DNA from: Myxococcota bacterium
GTDB taxonomy: Bacteria > Myxococcota_A > UBA9160 > SZUA-336
Assembly (NCBI GenBank): GCA_965247115.1
Contig: CBDFGR010000001.1
Coordinates: 248,201-312,200, forward strand
DNA: 64,000 bases
Reading direction: 5' to 3'
In this document: one piece after another, positions 27,394-63,304 of the stretch
How the letters are laid out: each line of letters opens with the position of its first letter
How positions within the stretch are numbered: position 1 is the stretch's first letter
Notes under the pieces: generated by a model
Told to the model about the DNA's origin: nothing
The model's database searches: none
Seen by the model: the letters and a program-made list of their open reading frames with translations, nothing else
Made by a program: the position numbers and the translations under genes

Positions 27394-27474
<81 letters not shown>

Positions 27475-31408: not shown

Positions 31409-34400
31409 GTGACCGTGCTACCCCCCTGGCACGGCTTTGCCCGCATTGCGGGATCGCGCGCTTTCGCCGCACTCCTCGTGCTGCTGCTCTGCGCGGTCGC
31501 GCTGGACGCGAACGCCGCGGACGGAGACTTCATCATCGTTCGCGAGGCCACCGCGGGTGACGGGATCACCACCGAGAATTCGTGGGCCACGCTCGACTGG
31601 GACACCACGGTCAAGGACGAGGGCGCCGCGCGCCCCACCCTCTCCGGTGGGAACCAGATCCTCCTCGACGCGGGTCACCATCTCATCCTTTACTCGGTCA
31701 AGGCCACCCAAGCCAGCGGCGCCAACGACCGCACGGCGTGGGCGAACCGGCTCCAGCTGGCGGGCGGGACGCTCGCCTACGGCTACGGCTTCGCGTACAT
31801 GCGCGACAACGAAGGCGCCCAGGGCGCGGCCTCGTTCGGCGGGGCGATCATCGACGTGGCGACAGATGATGACGCCCTCACGCTGCAGTGGGCGCGCCAG
31901 GACAGTAACTCCGGCAGCAGCGTCACGCGCGATGCGAACGCCAGCGGCCTGCAGGTGCTCAAGCTCGCCGACTCGCTCGACTACCTGCGCATCCGGGAGG
32001 TCGGCGGCGGCCAGGACTTCAACACGACGACGTTCACCTCGGTCGACTGGGACACCTCGGACGAGACCGACACAGGCAGCTTCGGGTTCACACCCAGCTC
32101 GACGAATATCACCCTCAAGGGCCCAAGCGGCACTCTGTTTCTCACCTTTGCCAACGTCGGACTGACTGGCACCAGCGTCCGAAAGAACACCGAGCTCGCG
32201 TTCTTCCTGGACGGCTCCGAGCTCGCCGGGAGCCGCACCACAGCCTACGACCGCGGCAGCGGCAACATCAACGAGGCCTGGCTGAGCGGGGCATTCCTGA
32301 TCGCGAAGACCAGCGCTTCCGACCAGACCCTGACGGTTCGCGCCCGCCGGGAGGACACGAACGCGGGCGCGATCACGGTCCGGGGGGGAGAGACGGGCCT
32401 CACGATCGTGGCGCTGCCAGCCGACGCGGAGGCGATCCGGCTCACGCATAGCGCGGTCCAGGACTTGAACACGGCCGGACCCGACACGTTCCCCTGGGAC
32501 ACGGAGGACCAGGAGGACGCCGCGGCGTTCACTCACGATCCGGTGACGAACAACAGCCGCATCGCGGTCGACGTTGCTGACGACTATCTGTTCTTCGCGC
32601 AAGCCTACGCGGAGAACAACGGGGTCTCGCGCGTCAGGCCTTTGATACGGCTCCGCAAGAACGGCGGCTCCGACCTTCCCTACGCCATGGGCATGGGGTA
32701 CGGGCGAAACTCGGAAGGGTCCGTGAACGCAGGCGTGTGGGTCGGAACGATCGCGGAGGACCTGGTCGCGAACGACTATTTCGAGGCCACCCACACCCGC
32801 GGCGCCACGAACACGGGCGCCTTCAACAGCGACCAGCTCTACTTCTGGGGCCTCAGAATCGGGAGCCTGAGCGGGGGCGGAGACTGGTATGCGTCCGCCT
32901 GGCCGTACCGCAAGACGATCACGATCGACTCCGCGCAGGTGCCATCGGATCAGACGAACTTCCCCGTCCTCATCTCCTTAGGCGACTCGCACATCGGAGC
33001 GAACGCGCGCGCGGACGGCTTCGACCTGCTCTTCACCGACACCGACGGCGTGACCAAGCTCGATCACGAGATCGAGACGTACACCACAGCCGATGGCACA
33101 GTCGTCGCGTGGGTCCGAGTCCCGCTGCTCACGAGCGCGACCGACAAGGTGATCCATCTCTACTACGGGAACTCCGGGGCTTCGGACCAGCAGAACGCCG
33201 CCGGTGTCTGGGACTCCGACTACGTGGGCGTGTGGCACCTGAAAGAGGATCCGGGACCCGGGAGCCCGGGCGACATCAAGGACTCCACCGGCAACGCCTT
33301 TCACGGCACCACCATCGACCCGATGACTTCCGGGGATCAGGGCCCCGGCCAGATCAACGGCAGCATCGACTTCACGGCAACCGGGGACGAGATCATCGGC
33401 CCCACGAATGCAGCACTCGATCTGATCGCGACGGACTTCACGATCTCCGCGTGGGCGCTGAATCCCGTCAGCTCATGGAAGACGATCGTGGCCAACGCCC
33501 AGGGCGACACGAATGGCTGGAGCTTCCGGACCAGCGCCTCCGGCCAGATCGAGCTGGTGCTCGGGAACGGCAGCTCCGGGACGTACACAACCGGGACCAC
33601 GACCGCCCCGGCCGGGTGGGTCCACATGACGGCCACCTTCGTCGATTCGTCGAACACGGTGAGCTTCTTCCTGAACGGTGCCGCGGACGGCACGGACACC
33701 TTCACGAGCACGCTCACGGCCTCTGACTACCTGGCCATCGGCCGGCGACCGACCGGTGGCAACTCTTACGACAACTGGCTCGACGAGGTCCGCATCTCCA
33801 AGAAGTCGCGCTCCGCGGACTGGATCCAGACCGAGTACAACAACCAGAGCAATGCTGGCATTGGCGGCTTCCTCTCCGGTGTCGGCGACTCCGAGACGGA
33901 GGACTCCTGGTACGACGCGGACTGGCAGCGCCGCAAGAAGATCACGATCGACTCCACCCAGGTCATCGCGGATGAGACGAACTTCCCCGTCCTGATCTCC
34001 TTTACCGATGGCCAGGTCGGCGCCAGCTCGCGGGCCGACGGGTTCGACCTTCTCTTCACCGATACCGACGGGATCACGAAGCTCGACCACGAGATCGAGA
34101 CGTTCACCACGCCCGCCGGCACCCTCGTTGCGTGGGTCCGGATCCCGCTGCTCACGAGCTCCGTCGACAAGGTGATCTACCTCTACTACGGGAACTCCGG
34201 GGCCGCGGATCAGCAGAACGCCTCCGACGTCTGGGACACCAGCTACATTGGCGTCTGGCACCTGAAGGAGGATCCTGCAGGTGGAGCACCGCAGGCCAAA
34301 GACAGCACCACAAGTGCGAAGCACGGCACGTCTGCCGGTGGGATGACCAGCGGAGACCAGATCCCGGGCGCCATCAACGGGAGTCTCGACTTCGACGCGG

Positions 34401-37400
34401 ACGACCGTATCGACGTGGGCAATCACCCCGAGTTTGACCTGCCCGTCTACTCCTGGTCCATGTGGGTCAAGGGAACGGTTGCGCCGGACTCCTCAGGCCC
34501 GAACGAGCACGTGTTGTGGAACGGGGACTACAACTTCTCGTTCGCCTGGGGACACAGCGCGGCCTTCATGCAGGCCGCCACCCACAAGGATTCCGAAGCC
34601 TGGCAAGCCGCCCAGATCGCCACGACGCTCGTGGCAGACACCTGGTACTACATCACCGGAACCTATGACAGCGCCAACATCCGGGTCTATCTGAACGGGG
34701 GTCTGGAGGACACGCAGGCTGCCGGAACGCCAGTCGCCACAACGGACGTGCTGATGATCGGCTATGCCGATATCGCGGCTTTCGCGGGTCAGATCGACGA
34801 GGTCCGCGTCTCTGACAGCGCCCGCTCCGCCTCCTGGATCCAGACCTCCTACAACAACCAGAGTGCCCCGGGCGGATTCGGGAGCGTCGGTGACGAGGTC
34901 TACCCCTCCCAGGCCTCGGCCTCCGTAGGCGGAACGATCATCTCATCGGTCACTGACAGCGACATCGTCACGGGTGGAAAGACGCTCGTGATCACGCTGA
35001 CGGGCGATACGTGGGTGGCGGCAGGTGGCACTTGCAACGGAGCTGTCGGCGACGTCTGTGGTGATGGGACAGTCTACGCGGGTACGTCACCTGACGGCAG
35101 TGTGGATATGTGGGTCACCCGATGTGATGAAGGACAATCCTGGACTGGCAGCTGCACCGGTACCCGATCTCTGTATAGCTGGAACAATGGCACAACAAAT
35201 TGGACCACTACTGGGATTAACAACTTCATAACAGGTAAAGCCAACACCACGGCGCTCGACGTTCTAGTAGACGCGGGCTCTGGCTATCTGGCTGCCGAGG
35301 CCTGTGAAGCGTTGAGTCTCAATGGACACACAGATTGGTATCTGCCCGCTCACGATGAGATGGAGGTGATGTATACCAATAGAGTCGCAATCGGAGGCTT
35401 TGACACCAGCCAATATTGGTCGTCCTCGGAGGACGATAACAACGGCGTCTGGGAAATCAGCTTCTCTGATGGCAGTTGGAACGCCGGGGGCGGCAACAAA
35501 TCCTTCTCAGACACTGTCCGGTGTGCGAGGACTGGTGCCGGAGGAGGTGGGGCTTTTGATTCTGAGCGGCAGAACATCATCAACGGATTGACTTCTGCAC
35601 AGTCTGAAACGACTGGATGGAATAACGAGGTAAGAGACAAGCAACTTGTCGGTGGCGTTGTGCGGACCAGCGACACCGTGGTCACGATCACGCTGGACGC
35701 GCAGGCCAGTTATGACATTACAGCCAGTGAAACGATCGAGTCGACGATTCCTGCCACGGCACTGGTAACATCCGGCAGTGCACTTACGGCGACACCAACG
35801 TTTGATATCACGGCCGTCGTGGTTGGAGCTGCGGAGTGGGAGTTCGACGATGGCAGCGGCCAGACCGCGGCCGACTCGTCGGGCAACTCCCGCGACGCGA
35901 CGCTCGGCAGCACGGGCTCCTCCGACACCAATGATCCCGCCTGGCTGACCTGCGCCATTGGCGGCAGCGTGCTCGAGTTCGACGGCGTGAACGACTACGT
36001 CGAGGACGCCGATGGCGAGCTCTACATCAACAGCCTGGACAAGTTCACGCTCTCGGCCTGGATCAAGGCCGACGCCGTCGGCACGGACAGGGGCTTCGTC
36101 CACACGATCGTCCCGGACAACAGCGACAGCCAACTCGGCATCCGGCACGACTCCTCCGGTTCGCTGGGAGGCGGCACGAACGTCTTCAAGGTCGGTCTCG
36201 ACGTGAATAGCGTGCCCGGGGCCCAGCAGCTCGAGAGCTCCAATAGCGCTCAGACAACGAGCTGGCAGCACGTCGCCGTGGTGTGGAAGAGCGGTGATCC
36301 GCTCAAGCTGTACATCGACGGCAACCTGGACACGCCGACCTACAACAGCGCCGGAGTCGTCGGCACCGTCACCAACGCTACCACGCTGCGCATCGGTCAG
36401 GGCGGAAAGGACGACGTCCTGGGTGGCTGGGACGGTCTAGTCGACCAGGTCCGTTTCTTCGACACCAACCTGAACGCGTCGGAGATCAGCGCACTCGCAG
36501 CCACGGCGCCATCGGGCTGTGCTGCGGGGCCGGTAGCCCACTGGGACTTCGACGAGGGCAGCGGCCAGACGGCAGCCGACTCCTCGGGGTTCGGTAACGA
36601 CGGTCAGCTCGGGAGCACGACCGGCGTGGACGCGAATGATCCGACCTGGGAGTGCGTCACCGGTGGCTACGCATTGGATTTCAACGGGACCAGCGATTAT
36701 GTGGACCTGGGAAGTCCTGCTTCGCTGAATCTCACTACCACATACAGCGTTGCCGGATGGGTCAAATGGAAAGGGGGAAACCCTAATGCCGTCATCTACG
36801 CATCTGGCGATGCAAATGCCGATCATTATCGAGTTGATGTAAACAACTGCACGGCCAATGGGCTAAGCCTGCGAGAGGATGGCGACGCCTGCCACCCGGC
36901 AACCAGTGACCTCCTGCCCGCCGATACCTGGCATCACATCGCGGTCATCAAAGACGGTGATACGGGAACGAATCTAGCTTTCTACCTGGATGGAGTAAGT
37001 GATGGCACTGCTTCAGCCGGCACCTCTGGAGCCACTGGACTGAAGAGAATCGGGGCTCGAACAGAAGCCACAGACATGTTCTTCGATGGCGTCCTCGACG
37101 ATCTTCGCATCTACGACCGCGCTTTGAGCGGGGCCGAGGTCAGCGCCCTCGCCGCATCCCCGCCTGCTGCATGCCCGATGGCCCTCGTCGCTCGCTACTG
37201 GATGGAGGAGGTTGCGAGCGGCCAGAGTCCGGCACAGCTGATTGACGATCAGGTGAGTCCGCTCGACCTGTCCATCACCTATGACGGCGCGAATCCTACC
37301 TACATCGCACCGTCGACCGGAAGGGGCTGGTCCTCTGCGACCACCACCAACAATGGGCGCGCATCCATTCTGGCTGATAGTACGAAGATCCAGACAGCTC

Positions 37401-40400
37401 TGGACGGCTCGACAAAGGCCAGTATCGAGCTCGTCGTGCGCGTGGATGCGGCCAGCTCCAGTGGTACGCGCCTCATCCATATCGGAAGCTCCACGGAGTC
37501 GGGCCATTTCACAGTCGAAGCAAGCCCGACCAAGATTGAATTCTACTTGTTCGGCGAGACGATCAGGGGAGAGTGGAATCCCGCCTGGGATGCCACGCGG
37601 ATGGCGTTCCACCTGGTGTACGACTCCACCCAGCCGACAGCAGCTGATCGCGTGAAGCTCTACAAGAACGGCGTATTGCTCTCGAAGACCGGCGGCACCG
37701 ACCCACCTCTGAACGAGACCATCAGTGTTCCGGCGGGCAAGTACTTCGTGATCGGCAACCGCGAAGTCGGTGGTCGATCCCTTGACGGCGACATCACGTA
37801 CGCTGCAGTCTACGACGGAGCGCTAAGCGCATCCGAGATCTCCAGCCAAGCGACTGCTCTCTTGGCGAATGATGACTCTGTACCGGCCGCGGCAGGAACC
37901 CTCTACCGCTCCGTTGGAACGAACGGGACTGACCTCAATACGAGCGCCCGTACCGTCGAAGTCTCCGGTACAACGGCGACCTTCAGTGGAAGCATGCCCG
38001 CCAATGTCGGCGTCGGCGACGTGCTCCAGTACCAGGTCGCAGCAACGTGGTACGTCGCCGTCATCTCCGGCCGGACGAGCAACACCGTCTACACCGTTAA
38101 GAGCGCGAGCGGCGCCACGCCTCAGGCGGCTGTGGCTGGGACGGCTGTGAACGTGTACCGGGCGTACACCTCGCTCAACAAGTGGGAGTCCCAGAACGAG
38201 AACGACTCTCTCAACGATCTTGTCGAGGACTTTGACACCTCCACGGACCTGGTCACCGCCAATACGATCATGCAGGTCGCGGCGTACGCAGACGGGGTAG
38301 AGACCGACGGGGGCGCCCTCTCCATCGATGGATGGACTACGGGGCCGACCAACTACATTCGGATCTACACGCCGGTTTCGAGCAGCGAGGTCGGTATCAG
38401 CCAGCGCCACACGGGTGTGGCAGGAACTGGCTACGTGCGCCGACCAACGACCGCGACAACGGCGACTTGCTATAGCCTTCTTGACATCAGAGAGAGCCAC
38501 GTCCGCGTCGAAGGCCTCGAGCTCGACGGCTCCGGCGTCACCACCGGCCGATCCCTGCGGGGCATTCACACGGACTCCCAGGCAGCCGGAAACGACATCC
38601 GCATCTCACATAACCTGATCCACGACATCCGCAACTCGACCGCGGATGACAGCGCTGCGCGCTCCGTCGAAGGTATCTATGTACAAGCTGCAAGCGGCGA
38701 TACCTACAGCATTTCGAACAACATCATCTATGCAATCGAGAATCTCTCCGCGCACGTCTGGTCAAATGTTCGGGGTATGTGGCTGGATACTGGAGCTGCT
38801 GGTACCTCGTACGTCTTCAACAACACCGTCTACGACGTCTTGAACAGTGGCAGCGCAAACGACGGTGTAGGGATCAAGCTCAGGACTGACTCTCACACCT
38901 ACCAGCTCAAGAACAACTACGTCGGGAAGATCACCATGTCGGGCGGCATCCCGACTGCCTACGAGGTACCCGGAGCGCCGACGATTGTCGCCAACAACAA
39001 CGTCTCCTCGGATGCGACGGCCGACGACTTCGGTGGCGCCGGCAACGTGATCAACCAGAGCACCTACGCGAGCTATTTCACAAATGTAACAGCAGGCAGC
39101 GAGGACCTGCACCTGGTGGCCGACTCAAACGCGCTCTGGGGCACCTATGGTGAGGATCTCGATAGCGACCCGAACTTGCCGGTGACGCTCGACATCGATG
39201 GTGATACGCGGGACAGCGGTCAGCCCGATGTCGGCGCGGACGAGGTCTCGCTGACTGGGATGACGACGACCTCGACCGATGGGATCTGGTCGGGAACCGA
39301 GCGCTACATCCATCACGCCAACGGCAACTACTGGGCGGTCTTCTATGACGGCTCGGAGGGCGTGATCTTCTCGTCCGCGGACGGCTCGAGCTGGACGTCG
39401 CAGGGCAACGTGAACGTGACGGCGAGTGAGATCGAGCAGCCGTCAGACATCTCGGCCCGCTTCTCGGGGACCACGGTCATCGTGGCCTACGGCGACGACA
39501 ACGCACCGATTCCCTACAACCAGCTGTACTACCGCCACGGCACGCTCAATGCCGGCGGGACGGTGACCTGGTGGCCCGCAGCAAGCGACGAGCTGATCAT
39601 CCAGGCCGGGAATCACGAAAAGCGCACGCACGCGGCCTTCGACAGCAACAGCTTGCCCTGGATTGGGGGCGCTGGCGATGACGAGGAGCGCTTCAACGTG
39701 CACCGCGGAAGCGCAGCACAGAGCCCCACGTGGACGGACCGGAGCACTACCAACTATGGCGGAACCACGCAGGGCGGGCCGCACTCGACCGTGCTCTTCC
39801 CGACCGCAAATCCCGGCGACATGTACGGCCTCACGAACTCCAACGCCGGGGCGTCAGACCGGGACATCATCGGGGCCGGCTGGGACGATAGCGCAGGCTC
39901 GTGGGGCGCGTGGCAGGAGGTCGTATCGAACGATCTCTCCAACTGCGCTGACAATGCGGACGACTGCATGCGGAGGTGGTCGGCGGTCAGGACCAGCCTC
40001 GGAGAGATCCACCTGGCCTACATCAACGATGCGGGCGTCATTGTGCATCGCAAGGGCACGAACGCGCTCGCGCCAACCTGGTCCACGCCCAACGCGAATA
40101 TCACCGGACTGACGTCGCACAGCAAGGTCACGCTCGCGGCGAACAACAACGACCTCACCCTCTTCTACGACAAGAGCGACGACAAGATCTACTACCGCGA
40201 GTTCGACGGCTCGAGCTGGGGAGGCGAGACCGAGCTCAAGTCGGACACCACTCCGATCCAGGGCGGCATCTCGGCGTACGAGTCGATCCAGAACGGCCAG
40301 ATCGGTGTGATCTGGGCCGAGGGCTCCGCGAGCCCGTACGCCGTCCAGTTTGCACTGATGACCCCCTCGGTGTCCTCGGGCTCGGGCGCTGTAGGTGGAA

Positions 40401-43400
40401 CCGTCACCGCCAGCGCGGCCGAGAGCGACATCGTCACGGGTGGGAAGACGGTCGTCATCACCTTGACCGATGACACCTGGGTGGCCGCCGGGGCTACGTT
40501 CGACGCACAGCGCCAGAACATCATCAACGGGCTCGACTCCGCGCAGTCCGAGGGCACTGGCTGGGATGCGGTGGTGAAGGCCGGCCTCTCCGTGACGGAC
40601 GTCGCGCGCACGAGCAGCACGGTCGTGACCATCACGCTACCCGCATTCGGGAGCTACGAGATCACCGCGAACGAGACCATCACCGCGACCCTGCCCGCGA
40701 CCGCTCTCACGGGCGCGAGTCAGATCGTGGCGACGCCAGCCTTCCTCGTCGCGGTAGACCCCGAAGCAGCCGTCAGCGGCACGATCACGTCCGCGAACGA
40801 GGACCAGATCCGAACCGGTGGGCGGACCCTGCTCCTCACGCTGACCGGGGATACGTGGGTGACCTCGGGAGGAACCTTCGACGCCCAGCGCCAGAACATC
40901 ATCAACGGCCTGGACTCAGCGCAGGTGGAAGCGACCGGCTGGGACGCAGTCGTCAAGGCCGGCCTCGCGGTCACGGACGTCGTGCGGACGAGCAACACCG
41001 TGGTGACCATCACGCTGCCGGCCTTCGGCAGCTACGACATCACCGGGGCGGAGACGATCACGGCGACCGTACCCGCGACCGCCGTCACGAGTGCGAGCGT
41101 GATCATCGCCACTCCTAGCTTCATCATCAACACCACGAACGTCAGCGGCCAGCAGGAGTTCGTGGACGACGGCGTCTTCACGGTCCCGGGCGGCGTGACC
41201 CAGTTCACGATCAAGTCGTGGGGCGGCGGCGGCGGCGGTGGGTCCAAGGACACTGCGGCCGGCGGCGATGGGGGCGGCGGCGGCTACGTCGAGCACCTCG
41301 TCACCGGGGTCTCGGGAGGTGACACCTTCAGCGTCGCCATCGGCCGGGGCGGTGAGGGCGGAAACACGTGTGGTACCCACGCCGGCGGGGCTGGCGGCTA
41401 TCAGGGCGGAGACGGAGTAGTCAGCAGCCGCGGCAACGATGGCGGCGGCGGCGGCACCGCCTGGAGCGCGTTCTGGGGCGGCGACGGCGGGCCGGGCTGC
41501 GCTGTGAATGGCGGCGACGGCTCGACCAACGGCTCGGGCGGCGGCGGGGGCGGAGCCTGCGTTGGACAGACCCCGCAGAATGGCTCGGGTCGAAGCCCGG
41601 GCAACTCGGCGGAGGCGGCCGGCGCCGGCCAGGGGGGATTGGGTAACAGCACGACCTGCGCCCAGAAGAACGCAGCGGACGGCAAGGTGATCTTCATCTG
41701 GGGCAGCGGTGCGATGGCCGGGCTCAGCGGCAGCCTGATCCCGAATGCACTCCAATCGGAGGTCATTGCGGGGGGCGAAACCTTGGTGATCACGCTCACG
41801 GGCGACACCTGGGATCCGACGATCGGCGCAGACAACGCGCTCACCACGGCACTCATCAACGGTCTCGTCTCGGCGGGCGGAGGCGCGACGGGCTGGAACG
41901 CCGAGGTCAAGGCGAACCTCACGTACAACGAGGTGGTCCGGACGAGCAACACCGTCGTGACGCTCACTCTCCCGGCGCGACCGAGCTACGGTATCACGGC
42001 GAGCGAGGTCATCACCGTGACGGTCCCCGCAGCGACCGTCGTTGGTGGAACCGAGATCGTCGCGGCGCCGCCCTTCTCCGTCCTGCCTGCTTCAGCCAAA
42101 ACGGAGAGCCGCGTTGCCGCGTCTAGCGACGATGCCGAGGAGCTACTCAGCACGAACGCAGTAACGCTCGGCAGCCTGGACCTTCAGCTCATCGACAGCG
42201 GCGGTGCTCAGGAAGTCGGCATGCGCTTCCTGAACGTCCTGATCCCGCCTGGGGCCAGTATCACGAACGCGTACATCGAGTTCACCACGACCGTTGCGCA
42301 GTCCGGAGCCACGGACCTGACGCTGCGAGCGGAGGCGGTCGACGACTCGACGACCTTTGCCTCGGCGGCCTCGGACGTCTCGACTCGCGCCAAGACGACG
42401 GCAAGCGTGGCCTGGAGCAGCGTCCCGAGCTGGAACACCGTAGGCGAGACACATCAGACACCCAATCTCTCTGCCATCATCCAGGAGGTCGTCGACCGCG
42501 GCGGCTGGGTCGCCGGCAAGTCGATCTCGATCTTCGTCACCGGAACGGGAGCGCGCACCGCGACCTCGTACGACGGCAACTCCGCGGAGGCCCCGCTGCT
42601 GCACGTCGACTTCAATCCCGGCACTCCTCTGCCGCCTCCCAACACGCTCGGCCTGCGCGTCTCGGCCTCGACCGATGATGCCGAGGAGATGGTCAGCACC
42701 GGTGCGGTCGATCTCGTAAGTCCGACTCTGGAGCTCGTGGATGACGGCGGTGCCCAGCAGGTCGGCATGCGTTTCCAGAACGTGGCGATCGACCCCGGGT
42801 CGATCATCACGCGCGCCTACCTCGAGTTCACGGCCGACGTCGCGAACTTCGGGACGACGAACCTGACCGTCGAGGGCCAGGCCTCCGACAACGCCCCCAC
42901 GTTCACGAGCGGAGCGAACGACCTCTCGACCCGACTCAAGACCGCGACCTCAGTGGACTGGAGCAACGCCGCGGCCTGGGCCACGGGCGGCCAGACCTAC
43001 CAGAGCGTGGACCTGTCGCCGATCATCCAGGAGCTGATCGACCGGTCCGGCTGGGTCAGCGGGAACTCCGTCGCACTCTTTGTCACGGGCGGTGGTCGCC
43101 GTACCGGTGAATCCTGGGACGGAAACGCGGCCGCAGCTCCGCTCCTGCATCTGGAGTTCATGGCGCCCCCGGTCATGCCATCGACCACGGTGGAGGTCCG
43201 CATCTCGGGGAACAACGACGACGCGGAGGAGTTCGTCAGCGGCGGCGCGGTCAACAGGACGAGCACCGATCTCGAGTTCGTGGCGGACCCCGGCGATCAG
43301 ATCGTCGGCATGCGCTGGGCGAGTCTCCCCGTGCCTCCTGGCGTGACGATCACGAACGCGTACATCGAGCTCACGACGGACGAGACCGGTCCGAACCCCA

Positions 43401-46400
43401 CGACCAACCTGACCTTCTGGGCCCAGGCGGCGGACAGCCCCATCGAGTTCTCGGCCACGACCTCCGACATCTCGAACCGGCCAAAGACAACGGCGAGTGT
43501 CGCCTGGAACGGCATTCCGAGCTGGACGACGACGAACGAGACACACCAGACTCCGGACCTCGCCGCGATCATCCAGGAGGTGATCGACCGACCAGGCTGG
43601 GCGAGCGGAAACGCGATCGTGGTAATCAGCGAAGGGACCGGCGAGAGAATCGCCCACTCCCACGATGGCGTGCCCAGCGCGGCCGCTCTCCTCCACGTGG
43701 AGTACGCTCCGATCTGCGACGACGGGAACATCTGTACGGTCGACGTATGGGACTTCACGACCCAGAGCTGCGGCACTGACGCGGCCGCTGCAGACGGGTT
43801 TGCCTGCAGTGACAGTCTCTACTGCACCACAGGAAACTTCTGCTCGGCCGGCGTCTGCGGGGCGCCCGTCGACTGCTCCTACCTGGACGGCATCTGCACG
43901 GTCGGCTTCTGCGACGAGGGCGCCGATGCCTGCGTGAAGCAGGACAGCATCACCTGGTTCGATCCGAGCTGGCAGTTCCGCAAGCCCATCACCGTTGACT
44001 CCACCAAGGTCACGGGCGACCTCGACGACTTCCCCGTACTGGTCTCGATCACCGATACGGATCTCGCAGCTGCCGCCCGCGCGGACGGCTTCGACATCGC
44101 GTTCACGGACAGCGACGGCTTCGCAAAGCTGGACCACGAGATCGAGAAGTACGACGGCGGCTCGGGCGAGCTCGTCGCCTGGGTCCGGGTCCGACTCAGC
44201 TCGAGCACAGACAAGACCATCTACATGTACTACGGGAACGCCGGGGCCTCGGACCAGCAGAACGCTTCCGGCGTCTGGGATCCCAACTACGTCGGCGTCT
44301 GGCACTTGAGGGAAGACCAGGCAGGGACGGGGAACAACGCTCTCTATCGAGACTCCACCAGCAACAGCTACCACGGAGATGATGAGATCTCGGCAACAGG
44401 TCAGACCGGCAAGCTCGGTGCCGGGCAGCAGGTCGACGGGACCGATGACTACGTCGATCTGCCCTCCGCCGCAACGAGCGGACTGAGCCAGTTCGCTTTC
44501 TCGATGTGGGTCAAGACCACCGAAAGCGGAACCAACGGGGCCTACTGGCAGCGACCTACTCTGTTCGGCCAATCCACTAGCGGGCAGCCAACCGGAGACT
44601 TCGGAGTCAACACGAACAATGGATACATCGGGTTCTGGAGCGGCGTAACACCGGGCTCAGACTCCAGCTATCTTTCGAGCACTCTCCAGGTAAACGACGA
44701 TGCATGGCATCACATCCTCGTCGCCAACGACGGGGCGAACGCAAGTCTCTATGTGGATGGAGCGTTCCAGAGTTCTCTCGGTACAGGCTTGTCGCTCAAT
44801 AGCACCGCGTTTTGGCTCGGCGGTTTGGGCGGCCCAGAAGCACCGGGATCTCATCACGGTGGCAGCATCGACGAGCTCCGGGTCTCGGCTGCCGCGCGTT
44901 CTGCCGCGTGGATCCAGACGGAGTACAACAATCAGAACTCGCCCGGCACCTTCCACAGTGTGGGCGCGGAGCAGGGGCAACTGGCGACGTGCCAGGACTG
45001 CGACGACGGTAATCCTTGTACCGTGGATACGTACAACTCCGGTACGCAGACCTGCACCAATGATGTCGGAGCAGCGGATGGCCTGGCCTGCAACGACGGC
45101 CTGTTCTGCACGATCGGAAGCACTTGCTCGACCGGGGTCTGCGGGGCGGCGACAGACTGCTCCTCGCTCGACAGCGCATGTGCGGTCGGCGTCTGCGACG
45201 AGGCCGCGGACTCCTGCGTTTCCCAAAGCACGGGGACCTGGTACGACGCGAGCTGGACGCTGCGGAAGCCCGTCACGGTCGACTCCGCACGGGTGACCGC
45301 GGACCTGACCGACTTCCCGGTCCTCGTGTCAGTCACAGACACGGATCTTGCGGCGGCTGCGCGGGCGGACGGCTGGGACATCGTCTTCACCGATGACGAC
45401 GAGACCACGAAGCTCGCGTACGAGATCGAGCGCTATAACCCCGCGACGGGGGAGCTCGTCGCCTGGGTGAAGGTGCCGAACCTCACCGGCAGCACCGACA
45501 AGGTGCTCTACATGTACTACGGCAACGCGAGCTCGGCGGACCAGCAGAACGCTTCGGCGGTGTGGGACGCGGACTTCGTCAGCGTGCACCACCTGAAGGA
45601 GTCCCCGTCCGGGGGCGGCCCCTCGTGTATTGCGGGGCCGACCGTGTACGCGAGTGCCACTGCCTCAGCTACGTACGTAGTTCCGACGGGATGCGATACG
45701 CTGACCATCAAGGCGTGGGGGGCCGGTGGCGGCGCTGGCGGCGGTGGCGGCGGCGACGATGGTGGCAACGGCGGCGGCGGCGGTTTCGCGCAGGCCGACA
45801 TCTCGGTGACCCCATCCGAGTCTCTCGATATCGTATTGGGCGGCGGCGGACCTGGTGGAACCGGTGCGCCCGGGGGTTGCTCTACACCGCCGACGGGTGG
45901 TGACGGCGGCGGCGGCAATGCGACAACGGCCGCCGGTGGCGGCACCGGCGGGAAGGGCTGCGACTCCGACGGCGGCTCTGGAGGAGGAGGCGGCGGCTAT
46001 GCCGCGGTCAAGAGAGGCGGTGCGTTCCTCGTCGAGGCCGGCGGCGGCGGTGGAGGCGGCGGCGGCGGCAAGGAGAGCGACGGCGGGAAGGGTGGCGCAG
46101 GCGGCGGCTCGAGCGGTGTTGCAGGCTCCAACGCCAGTGGCGGTGGCGGTGGCGGTGGCGGTGGCACGACGTCAGCCGGCGGCTCCGGCGGATCTGGAGG
46201 TGGATCGACGGGAGCGGCGAACTCAGGCGGCAACGGCGCAGACAGTAACAACAGCAATGATGATGGCGGCGGCGGCGGTGGAGGCCGCTTCGGGGGCGGC
46301 GGCGGTGGCGACGGCGATGACGAGGGCGGCGGTGGTGGCGGCGGCGGCTCGAGCCTCGTCAGCGGCACGAACACGACGCTGACCGCCGGCTCCGGGACAA

Positions 46401-49400
46401 CGCCCGCCAACAACGCGGACCCTGACTACGCGGGGAGCGCTGGTGTGGGCGGGAGCGCCAACGGCGGCGGCGGCAGCCCCGGACGGATCGTCCTGATTCC
46501 GAGTGGCCCAGGCAGCGGCCCCGGAAGCTCCGTCGCGGACTCGACGGCGAACGCCAACGACGGCGTGACCAACGGCGGGATGGACGCCGCGGACCAGGTG
46601 ACTGGGCAGATCGGCTACGCCCTCGACTTCGACGGAACCGACGACTACGCCAACGTTTCGCACCACGCAGACTACGAGACGAACGATCGGACGCTCTCGG
46701 CCTGGGTCTACAACACGGATTCCGGTGGCGAGTATCGCGGTATCTTCGGAAAGAACCGCGAGGGCTCCACTTCGGAATGGCTGGCCATGTTCCGGAGCAA
46801 CGATGCGAGCGGCCTCTGGCACGCGAGGTCCGGCGGCTCGAGTTCGGATGGCACCGGTGCTGCAACGGGAACGTGGACCTACCTGGTGATGACGAACTCC
46901 CGCGGTGGTGGGGTGACCCTCTACCGAAACGGCTCGAACGTGGACGTCTCGTTCACGAACGGCGCCGGGGAGCCGGTCTCGGCCAGCTACGACGTCTCGA
47001 TCGGCCGTGTGAAGAGCGTCTCGGAGTTCTTCCAGGGCCGGATCGACGAGGCACGCTGGTCCAAGGTCCTGCGCTCCACGGCCTGGATCCAGACCGAGTA
47101 CAACAACCAGTCGGCGCCGGTCACCTTCCTCAGCCTGGGCGCCGAAGAGGACGCCGCGACCGCCTGCGGCAGCTGCGACGACGGCAACTCGTGCACGACC
47201 GATACCTGGGACTCCGGAACGTCGACCTGCATCTACGACTCGTCCGGGACGGATGGACTGGCGTGTTCCGACGGGCTGTTCTGCACGACGGGCAACATCT
47301 GCGCGGCCGGCGTGTGCGGCGCAACCACGGACTGCAGCTTCCTCGACGGCTCCTGCCAGATCGGCATCTGCGACGAGCCCTCCGACAGCTGCGTCCCGCA
47401 GCTGCAGGGCGTCTGCAACTGTGATGACGGAAACGCCTGTACTGTGGACTCGTTCGACACGCTTACCTTCACCTGCATCCACGACCCCGCCCCGGTCGAC
47501 GGCCTCGCTTGTGACGACGGCCTCTTCTGTACGCTGGGTGAGACTTGCTCGGCGGGCTTCTGCCGTAGCTCGGTGACCTACGACTGCACCTCACTCGACG
47601 GTCAGTGCCAGACCGGCGTCTGCGACGAGGGCACCGACGCCTGCGTGGCCGAGTGGCACGGCACCTGGAAGGACCCGCTCTGGGGCTTCCGCAAGACCAT
47701 TACGGTGGACCAGACCAAGGTGCCCTCCGACCTGACCGACTACCCGATGCTGGTCTCGCTCACGGATGCCGACCTGGCTGCCGAGGCTCGCTCCGACGGT
47801 CGGGACATCTTCTTCACGGAGATCGACGGAATCACGAAGCTCGACCACGAGCTCGAGCGCTACCAGAGCGGGAGTGGAACGATCGTTGCTTGGGTGCGGA
47901 TCCCGAGCCTGACCAGCAGCGCAGACAAGCAGATCTACATGTACTACGGGAACTCCGGAGCCTCCGCGCAGGAGAATCCGACGGCGGTCTGGGATGCGAG
48001 CTACAAGAGCGTCTACCACATGGACCAGGATCCGAGCAGCTCCGCTCTGGGCTACGTGACGCGCGGAACCGACTGGACGACGGGAACCTCCCACACGGTG
48101 GGCGCCGGCGACGACCGCCTGCTGCTGTTCGTGACGGGCCACGAGAAGGCCAGCGCAGACACCGATGTCACGTCCGTCAGCTACGGCGGCCAGTCGCTGA
48201 CGCAGATCACGCAGGTGGCGGGAGGAGGACCGGGAGCGATCGACGAACGCGTGAGCGCGGGCAGCAACGATTCCGAGGAGACGGTGGGCAGCGGCGCCAT
48301 CAACCGCACCAGCGGCGACCTCGCGATGGTCCTCACGACTGGTGGCGCCGGCACCGTTGCTCGCGTCGGCTCCTGGACGAACGGGACCTCGCACACGGTG
48401 GGCGCAGGATCGGATCGGGTGCTCGTGTTCGCGACCGGGTACGAGAACGGAAGCTCGAATGACACCGACGTCACCGCTGTCAGCTATGGCGGCCAGGCGT
48501 TGACGCCGATCGGCCAGTCGGTGGCCGGCACGACAACGCTGGCTCGGGTAGAGCTCTGGTACCTGAACGAGGCGGGAATCCAGGCGTCCAGCGGCACCAC
48601 CTTCAACGTGACGTACGGGAACGGTTCGCCCAGCAACGCAATGCACGCGGCTGCGACCTATCAGAACGTCGACCAGGCCACTCCAATCGCAGACACCGAT
48701 GTCGACACGACGACGAGCGTCGATCCGATCGATGCGGTCGTCAACGTCACGGCGGGGGCCATGGCCATCTCGGGCGCTGTCTGCGGAAACAGTGGGACGT
48801 ACGCATGGGGCAACGGGTGGGCCGAAGGTACGGATCAGGATGGTGGGAGCTCGACCATGTCCACCGCGGACAACCCTGCCACGGGCAGCGGCACGGATAC
48901 CGCTAGCGCGAACCACTCGTCCAGTATCAACCGCCAGGTCATCGTTGCCGCCACGCTCAACCCCTCATCTTCGGGCTCGAGCCGGCTGGTCGCGATGCGG
49001 TCACCAGCGTGGGCCTTCCGCAGGGCGCGAACATCACCAACGCGTACATCGAGTTCCGGGCAGACGAGAGCGACACGGGAACGACGAATCTGACCTTCCA
49101 GGCCCAGGACGTCGACGATGCTCCATCGTTGACGACGACCGCCTTCGACATCTCGAATCGCGTGCGGACCACGGCGAGCACTGCATGGAACAGCGTTCCA
49201 GCCTGGACCACGGGGACGAAGTACCAGACTCCGGATCTGTCAGCCGTCATCCAGGAGGTCGTGAACCGCGGCGGCTGGTCGAGCGGCAATGATATCGTCG
49301 TCATCGTCAGCGGAACGGGTAACAGAGTCGCGGACTCGTACGAGGGCTCAAGCTCCAACGCCCCCCTTCTCCACATCGACTACGACCAGTCCGACTACAT

Positions 49401-52400
49401 CCGAGCGGAGCTCTGGTACCTGAACGAGGCCGGCATCCAGGCCGCGAGCGGGAGCACCTTCTCGCTCGGCTACAGCAACGGCTCGCCGGACAACTCGAGG
49501 CACGCGGCGGCGACCTACCGCACGGTGGACCAGAGCAACCCGATCGGAGACAGCGACAACCAGGCCACCTTCACCTCCGATCCCATCACCCGGAGCGTGA
49601 GCGTGTCGACGGGTTCCATGGCTGTAGCGGGCGCCGTCTCCGCGGACAGCAGCTCCTACACCTGGGGCAACAGCTGGACCGAGGGAACTGACAACTCGAG
49701 CGGCTCCATGCGGATGTCCGCCGCCGACCATCCGGCCGCGAGCGGGGGCACCGACACCGCCAGCGCGAACTACGGCGGCACCCTGAACGCACAGTTGCTC
49801 GTCGTTGCAGCCCTCAACCCGGAGACGGGAGGCGCCATCATCCAGGACTCCACGTCGAACAACAACGACGGCCAGACCTACGGCTCCTGGAACAGCAGTG
49901 ACCGCCTGGACGCGATGTTCGGCTACGGTCTGGAGTTCGACAAGAACGACGAGTACATCGAAGTAAAGCACTCGACGGACTACGAGAACAGCAACGGCAC
50001 GGTGGAGCTCTGGTTCCGGCCCGACGTTCTGTCCAGCGACATGGGACTCTGGTCCAAGGACTCGAGTGGCTACGATTCCGGCGGCCACCTGACGATCGAG
50101 GCGCTGGGCAGCGACTTCCCGCAGGCTCATCTGCAGAGCTCGAGCGCGAACAACGTCGTGAGCGGAGCGTCGATCTCGACGGGCACCTGGTACAACAGCG
50201 CGCTCACGTTCGGCGGCGGTGGCATGAAATTCTACCGCAACGGCGGGCAGACCACGAACGGCTACACGGGCGGCATGTCCTCGAACACTGAGCCCATCGC
50301 GATCGGCGCCTCTACCGCGTCCAGCGGCAACGGCATCGCTGGTGCACTGAACGAGTACTTCGATGGCCGGATCGACGAGGTCCGGGTCTCGAGCGTGGCC
50401 CGCTCGCAGGACTGGATCACGACCCAGTACAGCAACTACGCGACCCCCGGGACCTTCTACTCGGTCTCCGTGGAGGAGCCCCTCGGCTCGAACAACTGTG
50501 CCACTCCGGACTGCAACGATGCGGACGTCTGCACGGTCGACTGGTGGGACGTCGGGACCTCGACCTGCGTCTTCGACACGGTCGCCGCCGAGGGCTTCTC
50601 CTGTACACCCCCCCAGGCCTGTGCTCCCGGCGGCGTCTGCACGCTCGGTGCCTGCGCCTCGCTGCCCGTGAGCAACACGCCGACGATCACGATCGACTCC
50701 ACGAAGGTGGTGGAGGATCTGACCAACTACCCGCTCCTCGTCTCCATCACGGACGGAGACCTGCAGGCCAACGCGCGATCGGACGGCTGGGACATCTGGT
50801 TCGCCGATTCCGACACCGTGACGAAGCTCGATCACGAGATCGAGAGCTACGACAGCGCCACGGGGACTCTCGTCGCCTGGGTCCGGATCCCGCTCCTCTC
50901 GAGCAGTACCGACAAGGTGATCTACCTGAACTACGGGAACCCCTCGTCACCGGACCAGTCGAACCCGCCAGGCGTGTGGGACTCCACATTCGCGGGAGTC
51001 TGGCACCTGAACGAGGACCCCTCGGGTGGAGCACCGCAGTCGATGGACAGCACGTCGAACAACAACGATGGCAGCTCCAACAACATGACGAGCGGGGATC
51101 TCGTGACCGGCAAGATGGCCGGGGCGCTCGACTTCGACGGCACGAACGACTGGGTCCAGGTCCCGCACAGCTCGAGCGTGAACCTCACGGGAACCGGAAT
51201 GACCCTGAGTGGCTGGGTGAGCTCGGACGGTCAGACTGCTGATGTCGGCATCCTGCTCAAGTCGACCAGCAGCTATCAGATCCACCTGGGCATCGAGTCC
51301 GGCGAGACCGGCAACTTCCGAGTCAACACACCGGACGCGGGCTACACCCGCCTCGATACGACGAGCACGGTGCCGACGAACGGGACGTGGACTTACCTGA
51401 CGGCAACCTACGACGGAGCAACGGCGAGGATCTACTTCAACGCCAGCGAGCAGGCCACGGACCCCCGCACCGGCAACATCGATGCGACGACCGAGCCGGT
51501 GCTCATCGGTCGGCGGGCCATTGGCGACGCCCGCTACCTGAACGGCCGCATCGATGAGGTCCGGATGTCCAACGTCGCGCGCTCGGCGGGCTGGATCCAG
51601 ACGGAGTACAACAACCAGTCGTCCCCCTCCACGTTCCTCACGTTGACGCCGGGAGGCGGAGCTTGTGCGGTCGGCGATCACTTCGTGATCACGCACGACG
51701 GGAACGGCATCAACTGCCTGCCCGAAACCATCACGGTCACGGTGGTCGATGGAGCGGGCGCGACCGTCACGGACTACATCAAGCCCGTCGTGCTATCCAC
51801 CCAGAACGGCAAGGGAACCTGGATCAACGGCGGCAGCAACAACGGCACGTTCAGCGACCCGACCGCCAACGATGGCCTCGCCACCTACACCTTCGTGACC
51901 GCCGACAACGGAGTCGCCACCTTCGCGCTGGACTACCAGGAGGGTCCAGCCCTGGTCGACATCGACGTCTTCGACCCGGCCATCCCGACCTTCCGGGATG
52001 ACGACACCGAGGGCCTGATCACCTTCTCGCCAAGCAACTTCACCGTGACACAGAACGGTCTCTCCAACCCGCCGCCGGGCACGATCAACGACCCGATCCT
52101 GACTCAGACCGCGGGCAAGGACTTCCCGATCCACCTCGCAGCCTTCGGGCAGACGGCAAACCATCCAGTATGCGGTGTGATCGAGGCCTACGACGGCTCG
52201 AAGTCGCTGAAGTTCTGGTCCACTTACTCCAACCCCCTCACCGGAACCGTCAAGGTCAGCGTGGACGGTACGGTCATCGCGCAGAGCGAAGCGGCCGCGA
52301 CCGCCATGAGCATGGACTTCTCGTCCGGACAGGGCGATGTGATCGTCAAGTACAAGGACGTCGGCCAGATCCAGATCACCATGAAGGACGAGAACGTAGT

Positions 52401-53751
52401 CGAGCCGGTCGGCGGGATCACAGGCGCCACGAACCAGTTCGTGGTCATTCCCGCAGACTTCGACATCACGGTCAAGCGAATGGACGGCTCCGCCAACCCG
52501 GCCGGCGATACACCTGGCGGAGCAATCCTGACGACCGCCGGGGCCCCCTTCGAGGCGATCGTGGAGGTCCGCGACCTGGAGGGCTCGCTCACACCGAACT
52601 ACGGGAACGAGATCGCCCCCGAGGGCATCAAGATCGTCTCATCGACCCTGGTGGCACCGGCCGGCGGACGGAACGGAACGAACAACGATGGCGCGATCGG
52701 AAACAACCGCTCCTTCGCGCCGCTGGCGCCCGCCGGCACGTTCAGCGGGAATGCCTTCTACTTCGACGAGGTCGGCGCCATCAAGCTTCAGGCGAGCATC
52801 GGAGATGCAGACTACCTGGGAGCCGGAAACGTCACAGGACAAGAGACGGGCTCGGTGGGTCGCTTCACGCCGGACTACCTCGACACCTCACAGAACACGC
52901 CCGTATTCCAGACGGCCTGCGGTGCCGGCAGCTATACGTACCTCGGAGACACCTTCGACTACACGACCAGCCCCATGGTCACGGTGACCGCCAAGAACGC
53001 CGCCGGGAGCACGACGGAGAACTACGACGGGACCTGGTTCAAGCTCACGGTCGGTGCGCTGACCGGGATCAGCTACACGACCGCCACGGGCACACTCAGC
53101 TCCGGGGCGCCGAACGCCCCGACGGTCGTGAATCAGGGCGCGGGCGTAGGCACGGTCAGCTTCAACAACGGGCCGCAGCTGAGCTTCCTCCGCAGCGCAC
53201 CCGAGGCCGCGTTTGACGGCGAGATAGCTCTCGACCTGAACGTGTTCGACACGGACGCCATCGCCGCCCCCTCGAACCCGCTCTCCTTCGGAACGGCAGC
53301 CGCCGGCGGCGGAATCGCCTTCAGCTCCGGCAAGCAGCAGCGCTTCGGGCGGGCCGTACTGACGAACGCGCATGGTTCAGAGCTCCTGCCGCTGCCGGTA
53401 CCGCTGAAGACGCAGTACTACGACGGCAACAACTTCGTGGACCACGTTGCGGACGCCTGCACCACCTTCGTAGCCGGAAGCCTCAGCCTGACCCCGAACC
53501 CGGGCGGGCTGAGCAGCACGGCGAGCATCGGCAACAGCCCGCTCGTGGGAGGAGATGCAGCCCTCTCGTTGACCGCCACCGGAGCGAACAACACGGGCTA
53601 CTTCGACCTGGCCTATGCCCTCACCGGCCAATCCTACCTGCTCGGCGACTGGGACGGCGACTCCAGCTACGACGACGACCCCGTCTCCCGAGCTACCTTC
53701 GGCATCTTCAAGGGAAGCGACATGCTCATCTATTCCCGCGAAATCTACTAG
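31409..53751 (+). CDS. Giant secreted mosaic adhesin-like protein (~7,450 aa if joined): DUF2341/LamG modules with a MshQ-like DUF6701 C-terminus; single frameshift near 49001
   Basis: ORFs 31409-49093 and 49009-53751 join if one T is restored (atgcggt(t)cacc gives VAMRFTSVGLPQGANITNAYIEF), matching three intact sister repeats. Sec-type signal peptide. C-terminus has YKDVGQIQI, TPNYGNE, VGRFTPDY, RFGRAVLTNAHGSELLPLPVP and SRATFGIFKGSDMLIYSREIY. Confidence 0.9.
34960..42080 (+). repeat. Four 'ITLTGDTW...RQNIINGL...VVRTSNTVVTITL' repeats (near 34960, 40420, 40795, 41755)
   Basis: Direct protein-level repeats. The first copy is split by an inserted domain. Confidence 0.85.
42105..49389 (+). repeat. 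Four 'DDAEE...VGMRF...ITNAYIEF...QTPDLSAIIQEVVxRxGW...APLLH' beta-sandwich repeats (three tandem at 42105-43710, one split at 48236-49389)
   Basis: Direct protein-level repeats. Carbohydrate-binding-module-like by inference. Confidence 0.85.
43715..50660 (+). repeat. Five Cys-rich 'CDDGNxCTxD' repeats (near 43715, 44999, 47173, 47418, 50511)
   Basis: CDDGNICTVD, CDDGNPCTVD, CDDGNSCTTD, CDDGNACTVD and CNDADVCTVD, mostly followed by DGLxCT. This is a myxobacterial/Dictyostelium-type Cys repeat. Confidence 0.85.
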
Positions 53752-56073: not shown

Positions 56074-56388
56074 CTGGCTCCCTAACAGGGATCGCCTACA
56101 CGCCCGCAACGGGCAACCTGAGTGCCGGCGCTCCAGAGGCAGCCTTTGACGCCAAGGTAGCCCTAGACCGGAACTTGCTCGACACGGATGGGATCGCACC
56201 GCCCTCGAACCCGCTCAACTTTGGCACGGCCACCGCCGGGGGCGGGATCGCATACAGCTCGGGGAAGCAGCAGCGCTTCGGGCGCGCCGTTCTCATGAAC
56301 ACCCACGGCTCCGAGCTCGTGCCGCTCCCTGTCCCGCTCAACTTCAACGGGTCACGGGAGCGAACAACACGGGCTACTTCGACCTCTC
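56074..56388 (+). pseudogene. Decayed paralogous fragment of the DUF6701 C-terminus of the giant gene
   Basis: LTGIAYTPATGNLSAGA/PEAAFDAKVALD..PSNPLNFGTATAGGGIAYSSGKQQRFGRAVLMNTHGSELVPLPVPL..GANNTGYFDL parallels 53058-53610, with two internal deletions. Cut off by the IS. Confidence 0.88.
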
Positions 56389-56392
56389 CTAG

Positions 56393-57667
56393 CAGGCTGC
56401 TGAAAAACTCCTCATCGAAGGGTACCTTGGGAGCGAGCCCCAAAGGGGGAGGCGTGAGAGGACAGGGGACGCTTCAGGGCGGGATGTTCAGCTACGTGTC
56501 GCTGGAGTCGCGGATTCCGGATGATCATCCGCTTCGAGCGATGCGGCGCATGGTCGACACGGCGCTGCAGCGGCTATCGCCGCGCTTCGACGCGATCTAC
56601 GCCAGAGGCGTAGGGCGCCCGTCCGTGCCCCCGGAGCAGCTGCTGCGCGCCCTGCTGCTGCAGGTGCTCTACACCATCCGGAGCGAGCGGCAGCTGGTGG
56701 AGCAGCTGGAGTACAACCTGCTGTATCGCTGGTTCGTGGGTCTGGAGCTTGACGAGGTGGTGTTCAGCGCCACGGTGTTCACGAAGAACCGAGACCGGCT
56801 GCTCAAGGGCGAGATTGCCGAGCACTTCTTCGACGCAGTGCTGGAGCAGGCCGAGACCGAGGGATGGGTGTCGTTGGAGCACTTCACGGTAGACGGGACG
56901 CTGATCGAGGCGTGGGCGAGCCAGAAGAGCTTCGTACGGAAGGACGAGGAACGGAGAGACGACGATGACCCGGGCAACCCGACGGTGAACTTCCGAGGCG
57001 AGAAGCGGAGCAACCAGACGCATGCGTCGACGACGGATCCCGACGCACGACTCGCCGGTATGAGAGGCCAAGGCGCCCGACTCGCGTACCAGGGACACGT
57101 GGTGACGGAGAACCGGAACGGCTTGGTGGTCGCGGCGAAGCTCACGCAGGCGTCGGGATATGCGGAGCGCGAAGCGGCGCTCGAGATGGTGGAAGGTCTG
57201 GGAGGCGGGCGTCGGAGGACATTGGGCGGAGACAAGGGCTTCGACACGAAGGGGTTCGTGGAAGAGCTTCGAGAGTTGGGCGTGACCCCACACGTGGCGC
57301 AGAACACGACGAATCGACGCAGCGCGATCGACGGGCGGACGACGCGCCACCGGGGCTACGAACTGAGTCAGCGTTTTCGCAAACGGGTGGAAGAGGTCTT
57401 CGGCTGGATGAAGACCGTGGGGCTGATGCGCAAGACCCGACACCGCGGCACGGATCGGGTCGGCTGGGTCTTCACCTTCACGGCCGCAGCCTACAACCTG
57501 ATCCGGATCCGCAAGCTGCTGGAGGCCACGTAGGTCATGTGCGAAACCGCCCCGCGATCAGCGGAGCCCAAGACCGGTTCGAACCGGGAATCGCGCCCCG
57601 CCCCTCGGCCGGTGAACCCCCTCGTCGGAAGGACCACCCCTCAACCAGTCACTTTCTCCGCAGCCTG
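56393..57667 (+). mobile_element. IS5-family insertion sequence, copy 2
   Basis: Same length, ends and transposase sequence as 28985-30259 (offset 27408). CTAG on both sides. Confidence 0.95.
56454..57533 (+). CDS. IS5-family DDE transposase
   Basis: Protein identical to 29046-30125. Confidence 0.95.
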   Translation: MRGQGTLQGGMFSYVSLESRIPDDHPLRAMRRMVDTALQRLSPRFDAIYARGVGRPSVPPEQLLRALLLQVLYTIRSERQLVEQLEYNLLYRWFVGLELDEVVFSATVFTKNRDRLLKGEIAEHFFDAVLEQAETEGWVSLEHFTVDGTLIEAWASQKSFVRKDEERRDDDDPGNPTVNFRGEKRSNQTHASTTDPDARLAGMRGQGARLAYQGHVVTENRNGLVVAAKLTQASGYAEREAALEMVEGLGGGRRRTLGGDKGFDTKGFVEELRELGVTPHVAQNTTNRRSAIDGRTTRHRGYELSQRFRKRVEEVFGWMKTVGLMRKTRHRGTDRVGWVFTFTAAAYNLIRIRKLLEAT

Positions 57668-62900: not shown

Positions 62901-63304
62901 GTATCGACTACCTCGTACGACCAGTGGCCAATGTTGCTCGGGGCTTCGATACGGCACAGAATGTCGGCACGTCCGATCCAATGGTCGTGGGACAACGCAC
63001 CCTGAACAATCACCTGCACGCCTTGTTTCATAGCCGCAAGCGTTTGAGAGACGGCTTCGTCTGTAACCTCGACTCCATCGATTCTGATAGGTTCTAGACC
63101 GTTCTTTGCCAGGTGCTCGACATAGTTCTGCTCGTGGACGGAACCTCGCTCCCAAAGAAGCTGTAGAAGGGGATTATCCCGGACTCTGGGTTTCGCCAAA
63201 GCACCTTCGGCGACCGCACGGTCTAGTTCGGAGAGATGACGGCAATTCAGGTATCCGACTAAGTCGCTCGCGCTTAGCTCTAGGGAATCTTTGATTCGCT
63301 TCAC
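59901..63304 (-). CDS. TM0106-family RecB-like nuclease fused to RNase H-like and UPF1-like SF1 helicase domains; 1-nt frameshift near 62175
   Basis: GRADIL..YEVVDTKLA..QLCLY (PD-(D/E)xK), FFDLEGDP, HIYHYAPYE, YNKDDC, QGPPGAGKT, VDEAAQ, GDPQQL, TVDKFQGQE and NRLNVATSRA. The ORFs join at DFV/MARW to give ~1,134 aa. Confidence 0.88.

Follow-up and report, generated by a model that had tools for sequence, protein, structure and literature searches.

The giant gene and its nest of domains

The 64,000-nucleotide stretch analysed here (the window; positions 248,201 to 312,200 of contig CBDFGR010000001.1 in assembly GCA_965247115.1, from a Myxococcota bacterium whose genome is referred to as G000) carries a giant MshQ-like gene (31409..53751, forward strand, as for every feature below unless stated otherwise) in which whole domains lie inside one another four levels deep. 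The gene appears in the list of open reading frames (ORFs) as two ORFs, 31409-49093 and 49009-53751, and its read-through product of about 7,450 amino acids, with an X at a single frameshift, starts with an N-terminal signal-peptide-like segment and ends in a C-terminal DUF6701. Pfam matches within the product are to DUF2341, LamG, Lcl_C and the C-terminal DUF6701 (52105..53748; PF20419, 345 bits, E 1.5e-102, above the cut-off), which includes a conserved extreme C-terminal tail. Four DUF2341-LamG modules linked by cysteines, here called slots 1 to 4, precede DUF6701. Slot 1 (43952..44962) has an empty loop, occupied by a Gly-rich passenger in the same-genus genome G002 and in the relative P0188; slot 2 (45236..47149) has the corresponding loop filled by a Gly-rich passenger (45611-46516), where relatives have a B domain or another Gly-rich domain; slot 4 (50683..51657) is empty, and slot 3 houses the nest.

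The nest runs in the order A_N, B_N, C_N, B', C_C, B_C, A_C, where the suffixes mark the N- and C-terminal parts of each interrupted host. A_N (47666..48043; Pfam DUF2341, E 1.6e-14) comprises the entire DUF2341 and the first LamG strand of slot 3; B_N (48044..48229) is the N half of the outer B domain and ends at a predicted beta-hairpin turn; C_N (48230..48340) is the N part of a CBM96-like domain, C, delimited by self-comparison and by alignment of the half to intact copies. The innermost domain, B', is an intact copy of B which with its short Gly/Ser linkers covers 48341..48979 (B' itself 48341-48970). Beyond it the hosts resume in reverse order, as C_C (48980..49386, running across the frameshift), B_C (49387..49827, placed by self-comparison and the complex model described below) and A_C (49828..50478; the remainder of the slot-3 LamG, Laminin_G_3, E 2.1e-21).

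A preliminary description of the window had proposed this order, A[B[C[B']C]B]A, and it is borne out by self-comparison and by the collinearity of the split halves. Its breaks and resumptions were confirmed for A (after 48043, at 49828), for B (about 48229 and 49390-49396) and for C (about 48340 and 48980), as was the intactness of B'. The two parts of each host align to an intact copy collinearly and without overlap: B_N and B_C to residues 4-63 and 69-210 of B', C_N and C_C to residues 5-35 and 41-176 of intact C, and A_N and A_C to residues 1-125 and 133-327 of intact A. In all 11 half-versus-intact tests, two of them on a further domain, D, the alignment score was reached by none of 500 shuffles. 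Judged by these comparisons, the nesting of whole domains (LamG, B, the CBM96-like C and B') through four levels is real. The treatment of module A as one unit did not hold: because the LamG-type chain PDB 4QVS aligns from the strand just ahead of the A break, the module is, by this alignment, two domains, with DUF2341 whole and the break inside LamG after its first strand.

The giant protein contains two further inserts, the Gly-rich domain in the same LamG loop of slot 2 and an Lcl_C-bearing piece (35021-35554) that splits domain D (34904..35818). The latter is likely a recent foreign passenger, its G+C content at third codon positions (0.58, against 0.81-0.92 in the nest) suggesting a foreign source. 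Growth by in-frame insertion into loops, as first proposed, is thus upheld by these two inserts and by relatives in which the hosts are empty or nested to fewer levels, but the claim that this took place rather than end-to-end duplication is not, since the gene also contains three intact C domains in tandem (42095..43711, used as reference copies), D repeats, LamG pairs and the cysteine-linked A modules. No Hint/intein domain was matched by Pfam in the pieces of the giant protein that were scanned.

A misassembly check supports the arrangement: one Logan unitig of run X1 spans 47926-50800 with no differences, and two unitigs of run X2 cover 48016-50800. Both runs come from one sample, possibly the assembly's own, so that they rule out a joining error and are not independent. 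The preliminary description had read the sequence through the nest in the correct order but had crossed, without placing it, a one-base deletion (49000..49003) that is either a sequencing error or a real lesion; the missing base, near 49001, sits just past the strand that resumes C, seven codons after the right end of B'. A rough scan gave about 55 frameshift candidates in 5.2 Mb of the genome, the nest's own included, and the giant copies of G002 are broken at other positions, so that a single indel over 22 kb is close to what the background would give. Of 28 ORFs that were compared, two seemed to be frameshifted, but the queries turned out to run off-frame across intact ribosomal genes. Elsewhere in the window, a TM0106-family nuclease/helicase gene (59904-63304, reverse strand) is split near 62150 into two ORFs that overlap, probably by a second frameshift.

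Folds of the nested domains and closure of the split hosts

Domain B, of about 205 amino acids, has no Pfam match and gives an all-beta model (predicted local distance difference test, pLDDT, 94.6), in which the break of the outer B falls in the turn between strands 50-57 and 61-70. The family is large (3,233 cluster representatives at E 0.001), and its fold resembles predicted phage proteins, several of them named minor tail proteins (template modelling score, TM, up to 0.85). Foldseek found no close solved fold over the full length of B in the PDB (best TM about 0.3), and the matches from VIA-align were to jelly rolls over half of the domain only (Z up to 8.0, across 92 residues) and imply no function. 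Domain C, of about 175 amino acids, is apparently broken at a turn whose length varies in the alignment; its model features in the Atlas score 0.95 against CBM96 clusters at ranks 7-10, and none of the three intact copies matched any Pfam profile at E 0.05. By analogy with these resemblances of fold and features, B and C may bind glycans or receptors.

Closure of the split hosts was modelled as a complex of the two sides of the frameshift, B_N-C_N-B' against C_C-B_C, with alignments made for the job. The halves scored 0.86, compared with 0.00 for the best of three controls, a mark reached by 116 of 157 solved pairs and by 2 of 215 mismatched pairs, a calibration that applies roughly because these alignments were used. 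At least 77% of contacts recurred between runs, the pLDDT of the partner was at least 82, and the confident contacts pair the outer B_N (residues 2-58) with B_C and not with B'; halves of split genes tend to pass such a test, and an intact B' was present in the same job. The model supports the view that the split outer B re-forms its fold, and supports closure of C in part. The branched, tree-like shape envisaged in the preliminary description is thereby predicted only in part. A single-sequence AlphaFold2 model of the intact A[B[C]] of G002 was uninformative (mean pLDDT 30.7). As B and C have no Pfam match and a split LamG resembles two loose pieces, profile annotation misses variation of the side-branch kind; the B domain and the tolerant loops are natural scaffolds for domain display.

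Stages of nesting among relatives

A search of 61 genomes matched B' in four, with strong matches confined to G000 and to G002, which carries two giant paralogues; the closest named match, L018, stood at 84%. Relatives compared at the same loops show hosts that are empty or nested to fewer levels. Slots 1 to 4 of G000 contain, in order, nothing, a Gly-rich domain, B[C[B']] and nothing; those of G002 gene 1 contain a Gly-rich domain, B, B[C] and nothing, and those of G002 gene 2 a Gly-rich domain, a second Gly-rich type, B[C] and nothing. The first slots are empty, B and C in P0216, Gly-rich and B in P0188, and empty, B and B[C] in P0331 with P0363 (treated as one gene, their longest contigs being equal in length). 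Relatives therefore show each simpler stage, A[B], A[C] and A[B[C]]; three of the four levels are common to them, and the A[B[C]] of G002 contains an intact C, which is the empty site for B'.

The N parts of the hosts are 71-93% alike when compared by position (with the exception of P0216 slot 3, at 58%) and 52-68% alike off position. On these identities the LamG hosts are position-matched orthologues with differing loop passengers. Agreement by position holds for the LamG cores of some pairs only, so the cores have been exchanged as well; the slot-2 LamG of G000 is identical at 166 of 208 positions to the LamG that follows a B in P0277, and its Gly-rich passenger is 69-70% identical to the slot-1 passengers of relatives. 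The two giants of G002 (L026-L029, on G002:C28) are nearly identical over a long middle stretch; their differences lie at the N termini, in the slot-2 passengers and in the LamG cores.

Among the 61 genomes only G000 showed the four-level form, and no other intact one came from database and metagenome searches, one of which was limited to proteins of 358-2000 amino acids. A first metagenome scan yielded no relative; the 21 B loci of a second (19 unbroken, two cut by contig ends) include no split B. A modules were unbroken in all 116 cases placed, in a length-limited set that disfavours inserts, and four apparent A-loop inserts were rejected as tandem LamG pairs.

Nesting of B extends beyond these close relatives, although most copies are linear and not nested. 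With A, B, C and D tested as hosts, 209 of the 219 B-bearing proteins examined had a full B; a split A or B host enclosed it in 14 of them by rule and in two more by eye, at two sites in A and three in B. P0317 has the form B[B[B]]. Self-nesting of B involves three distinct loops (P0317, P0162, P0169, P0204, P0265 and L025), with two B-like domains in one loop in P0169, and in P0166, P0183, P0315, P0340, P0173 and P0309 it apparently lies within other unnamed repeat domains, as judged from empty-site BLAST matches, which were used for leads only (125 of 150 passed among the matches listed, many of them self or linker matches). Several diverged DUF6701 genes stand in tandem in G048:C54 and likewise in G017:C92, which is another way of varying the same protein.

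Pilus function and genomic setting

Of the 225 genomes of the class, 43 gave a DUF6701 match. The DUF6701 genes of six relatives encode about 1,100-1,700 amino acids, three of them clearly lying behind msh pilin genes, and the extreme C-terminal tail of the giant protein is the same in these six msh-type relatives and in both G002 paralogues. The msh operon of G000 (C2:469118-477527) ends at mshP and has no mshQ, and the giant gene, on C1, is the only full DUF6701 gene of the genome; it is called MshQ-like rather than MshQ because it does not directly follow mshDOP. MshQ has been predicted, in the available text of PMC12918778, to be a PilY1-like tip adhesin whose tail docks on MshP. This prediction, the DUF6701 domain, the conserved tail and an msh operon without mshQ together indicate that the giant protein likely acts in trans as a pilus tip adhesin.

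Just before an IS5 copy, a diverged piece of another DUF6701 gene (window 56128-56340, about 80% nucleotide identity) suggests a lost paralogue, G002 having two. IS5-family copies stand on both sides of the giant gene (window 28977-30250 and 56385-57658), and the genome-wide total of 28 near-identical copies suggests that the family expanded recently; given that number, a composite transposon is not claimed from the flanking pair. Behind the upstream IS5 copy lies a tyrosine-recombinase remnant (window 30131-30772), followed to 31080 by a stretch that is tRNA-like by eye, at which ARAGORN called no tRNA; a short match to the C-terminal end of the remnant occurs upstream of G002 gene 2 (L029:9970-10365). 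Further upstream, a short ORF with a match to Cap12-like nucleotide-binding (TIR-type) proteins (window 27852-28457) lies near a tRNA-Met gene (27398-27474).

Origin of the innermost domain and proposed route of insertion

B' is identical to the slot-2 B of G002 at 492 of 611 nucleotides, compared with 65-72% identity to the outer B. In a tree of B domains (36 rows, including the mis-cut, long-branched P0332_505) it is sister to the slot-2 B of G002 with support of 98/96, and the outer Bs form a separate clade (100/100). By this placement B' is derived from the slot-2 lineage and is not a copy of the outer B. It has likely moved between loops; most simply, an existing A[B[C]] would have received it in its C turn, moved or copied from slot 2. 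This direction is suggested by the C domain of G002, which keeps a consensus turn lost in that of G000. The preliminary description had noticed neither this origin in a neighbouring slot nor the exchange of passengers between slots. At the right junction of B' the linker has the same length in G000 as in the donor, and donor and acceptor share seven of nine bases in register, a match equalled at 2 of 170 in-frame sites in C, which amounts to a weak hint of microhomology; none was seen by eye at the left junction.

The preferred interpretation, with a probability of roughly 0.75, is that the nest grew stepwise by the movement of whole domains into surface loops of a protein that likely serves as the tip adhesin of a type IV pilus. 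The repeated DUF2341-LamG flanks, 52-68% alike in amino acids, would let passengers recombine from one LamG slot to another. Because such flanks serve slot-to-slot exchange only, a domain entering a loop new to it, for instance the C hairpin, would need another route, namely rare illegitimate events, perhaps guided by microhomology. Selection would then retain only in-frame inserts cut at domain boundaries, since in these the inner domains could finish first and each host close around them, and the precise insert ends would be the outcome of selection for frame and folding rather than of a dedicated enzyme. The payoff would likely be new glycan- or receptor-binding heads, added as side branches while the backbone and the C-terminal strand predicted to dock on the pilus tip are kept.

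Several observations weigh against this interpretation. The order of events is drawn, without rooting, from few genomes and fragments, and the microhomology at the junction is weak when set against 17 of 1870 background pairs and is based on stand-in sequences about 20% diverged. In the complex model, contacts within C are confident only for the first C_N strand (chain 1 residues 63-72), residues 73-99 and the strand after B' lie outside the confident contacts, and A was absent from the job. The giant gene is not next to mshDOP, unlike those of its relatives. The frameshift is present in the unitigs as well as in the assembly, so that this giant gene could be a pseudogene; the genome carries 28 near-identical copies of IS5.

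The last of these points leads to an alternative in which only the innermost level is at issue, as a recent, unselected accident in a decaying gene, with A[B[C]] the working form and C[B'] either not folded or not made. The position of the frameshift so close to B' and its presence in the unitigs fit such a scenario, as do the occurrence of the four-level form in a single genome of the 61 searched and the partial modelled closure of C. It is nevertheless unlikely, because B' is in frame, is cut at domain ends, sits at a variable turn and keeps its conserved residues, and because the remainder of the 22-kb gene is open, in a genome with some 55 frameshift candidates and with the G002 copies broken elsewhere.

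A bolder picture, and an improbable one, would make the LamG, DUF2341, B and C loops standard sockets into which dedicated recombination swaps binding domains within populations, giving branched trees of adhesin at the pilus tip. The narrower proposal of a dedicated, programmed system that moves whole domains between loop slots, as a domain-scale diversity generator, draws on the placement of insert ends at domain boundaries, on passengers that differ at every filled slot among few relatives, on the foreign base composition of one insert, and on the tyrosine-recombinase remnant upstream with its short match near G002 gene 2. Against this, the recombinase is a fragment behind IS5, linkers vary from junction to junction, no alternative slot content was seen in the two runs (in which contigs drop rare variants), and similar nesting occurs in proteins of unrelated architecture, so that a programmed system is quite doubtful.

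Local tandem duplication or internal repeats without insertion could draw on the many tandem repeats of the gene, and self-nests of the form B[B] (order N N C C, as in P0162 and P0317) can formally be obtained by duplicating each half, but three unrelated domain types are here symmetrically interleaved and B' is nearer to the slot-2 B of G002 (80% of nucleotides) than to the outer B, a position in the tree that largely refutes this very improbable origin. That the pattern is an artefact of assembling a repeat-rich gene in a metagenome-type assembly with at least one indel is scarcely credible, given the unitig that spans the nest without differences, repeats only 65-72% alike in DNA and the sharing of three of the four levels with relatives.

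Comparison with known systems

Domain insertion is usually regarded as a rare, old and fixed event. The close relatives described here provide a near-complete series of hosts that are empty or carry inserts one, two or three deep, with passengers changing between matched hosts, which makes the origin of discontinuous domains testable at the level of junctions, folding order and direction within one family. It also points to side branches as a second way of varying adhesins.

The giant protein resembles MshQ of MSHA type IV pili, as far as the available part of PMC12918778 describes it, in its DUF6701 tail, signal-like N terminus and DUF2341-LamG modules and in the presence of an msh operon in the genome. 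It differs from MshQ-type relatives in length (about 7,450 compared with about 1,100-1,700 amino acids), in being unlinked from mshDOP and in its nested passengers. With the PilY1/PilC tip adhesins, again as outlined in the accessible text of PMC12918778, it shares a conserved C-terminal docking part and a long variable N-terminal array, but it has no match to the PilY1 propeller, and its variation includes insertion into loops and not only linear addition. The 7,651-amino-acid adhesin of Mobiluncus mulieris (PMC10619420) is similar in size and modular build and is described, in the accessible portion of that paper, as blocks of repeat domains, without the word 'nested'.

The preliminary description had suggested that nesting of this depth was undescribed in an adhesin, which still stands in so far as no nested-domain adhesin was found in the literature searched, a body that left out most subscription papers. 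Depth alone is no record, because insertions reportedly occur in 20% of multidomain proteins and are nested in a minority, and six levels are reached in the RNA polymerase beta' of cyanobacteria (PMC13114784, available text). The SI3 region of that subunit has, according to the same text, the same recursive A1-B1-C-B2-A2 architecture and is deeper than the nest, but belongs to an intracellular enzyme and is built mainly from one hybrid-motif family, whereas the nest combines three unrelated beta domains in a secreted protein whose passengers differ between close relatives. What is new here is that a cellular pilus-type protein carries unrelated loop cassettes that can be exchanged, and that close relatives keep the stages of their accumulation.

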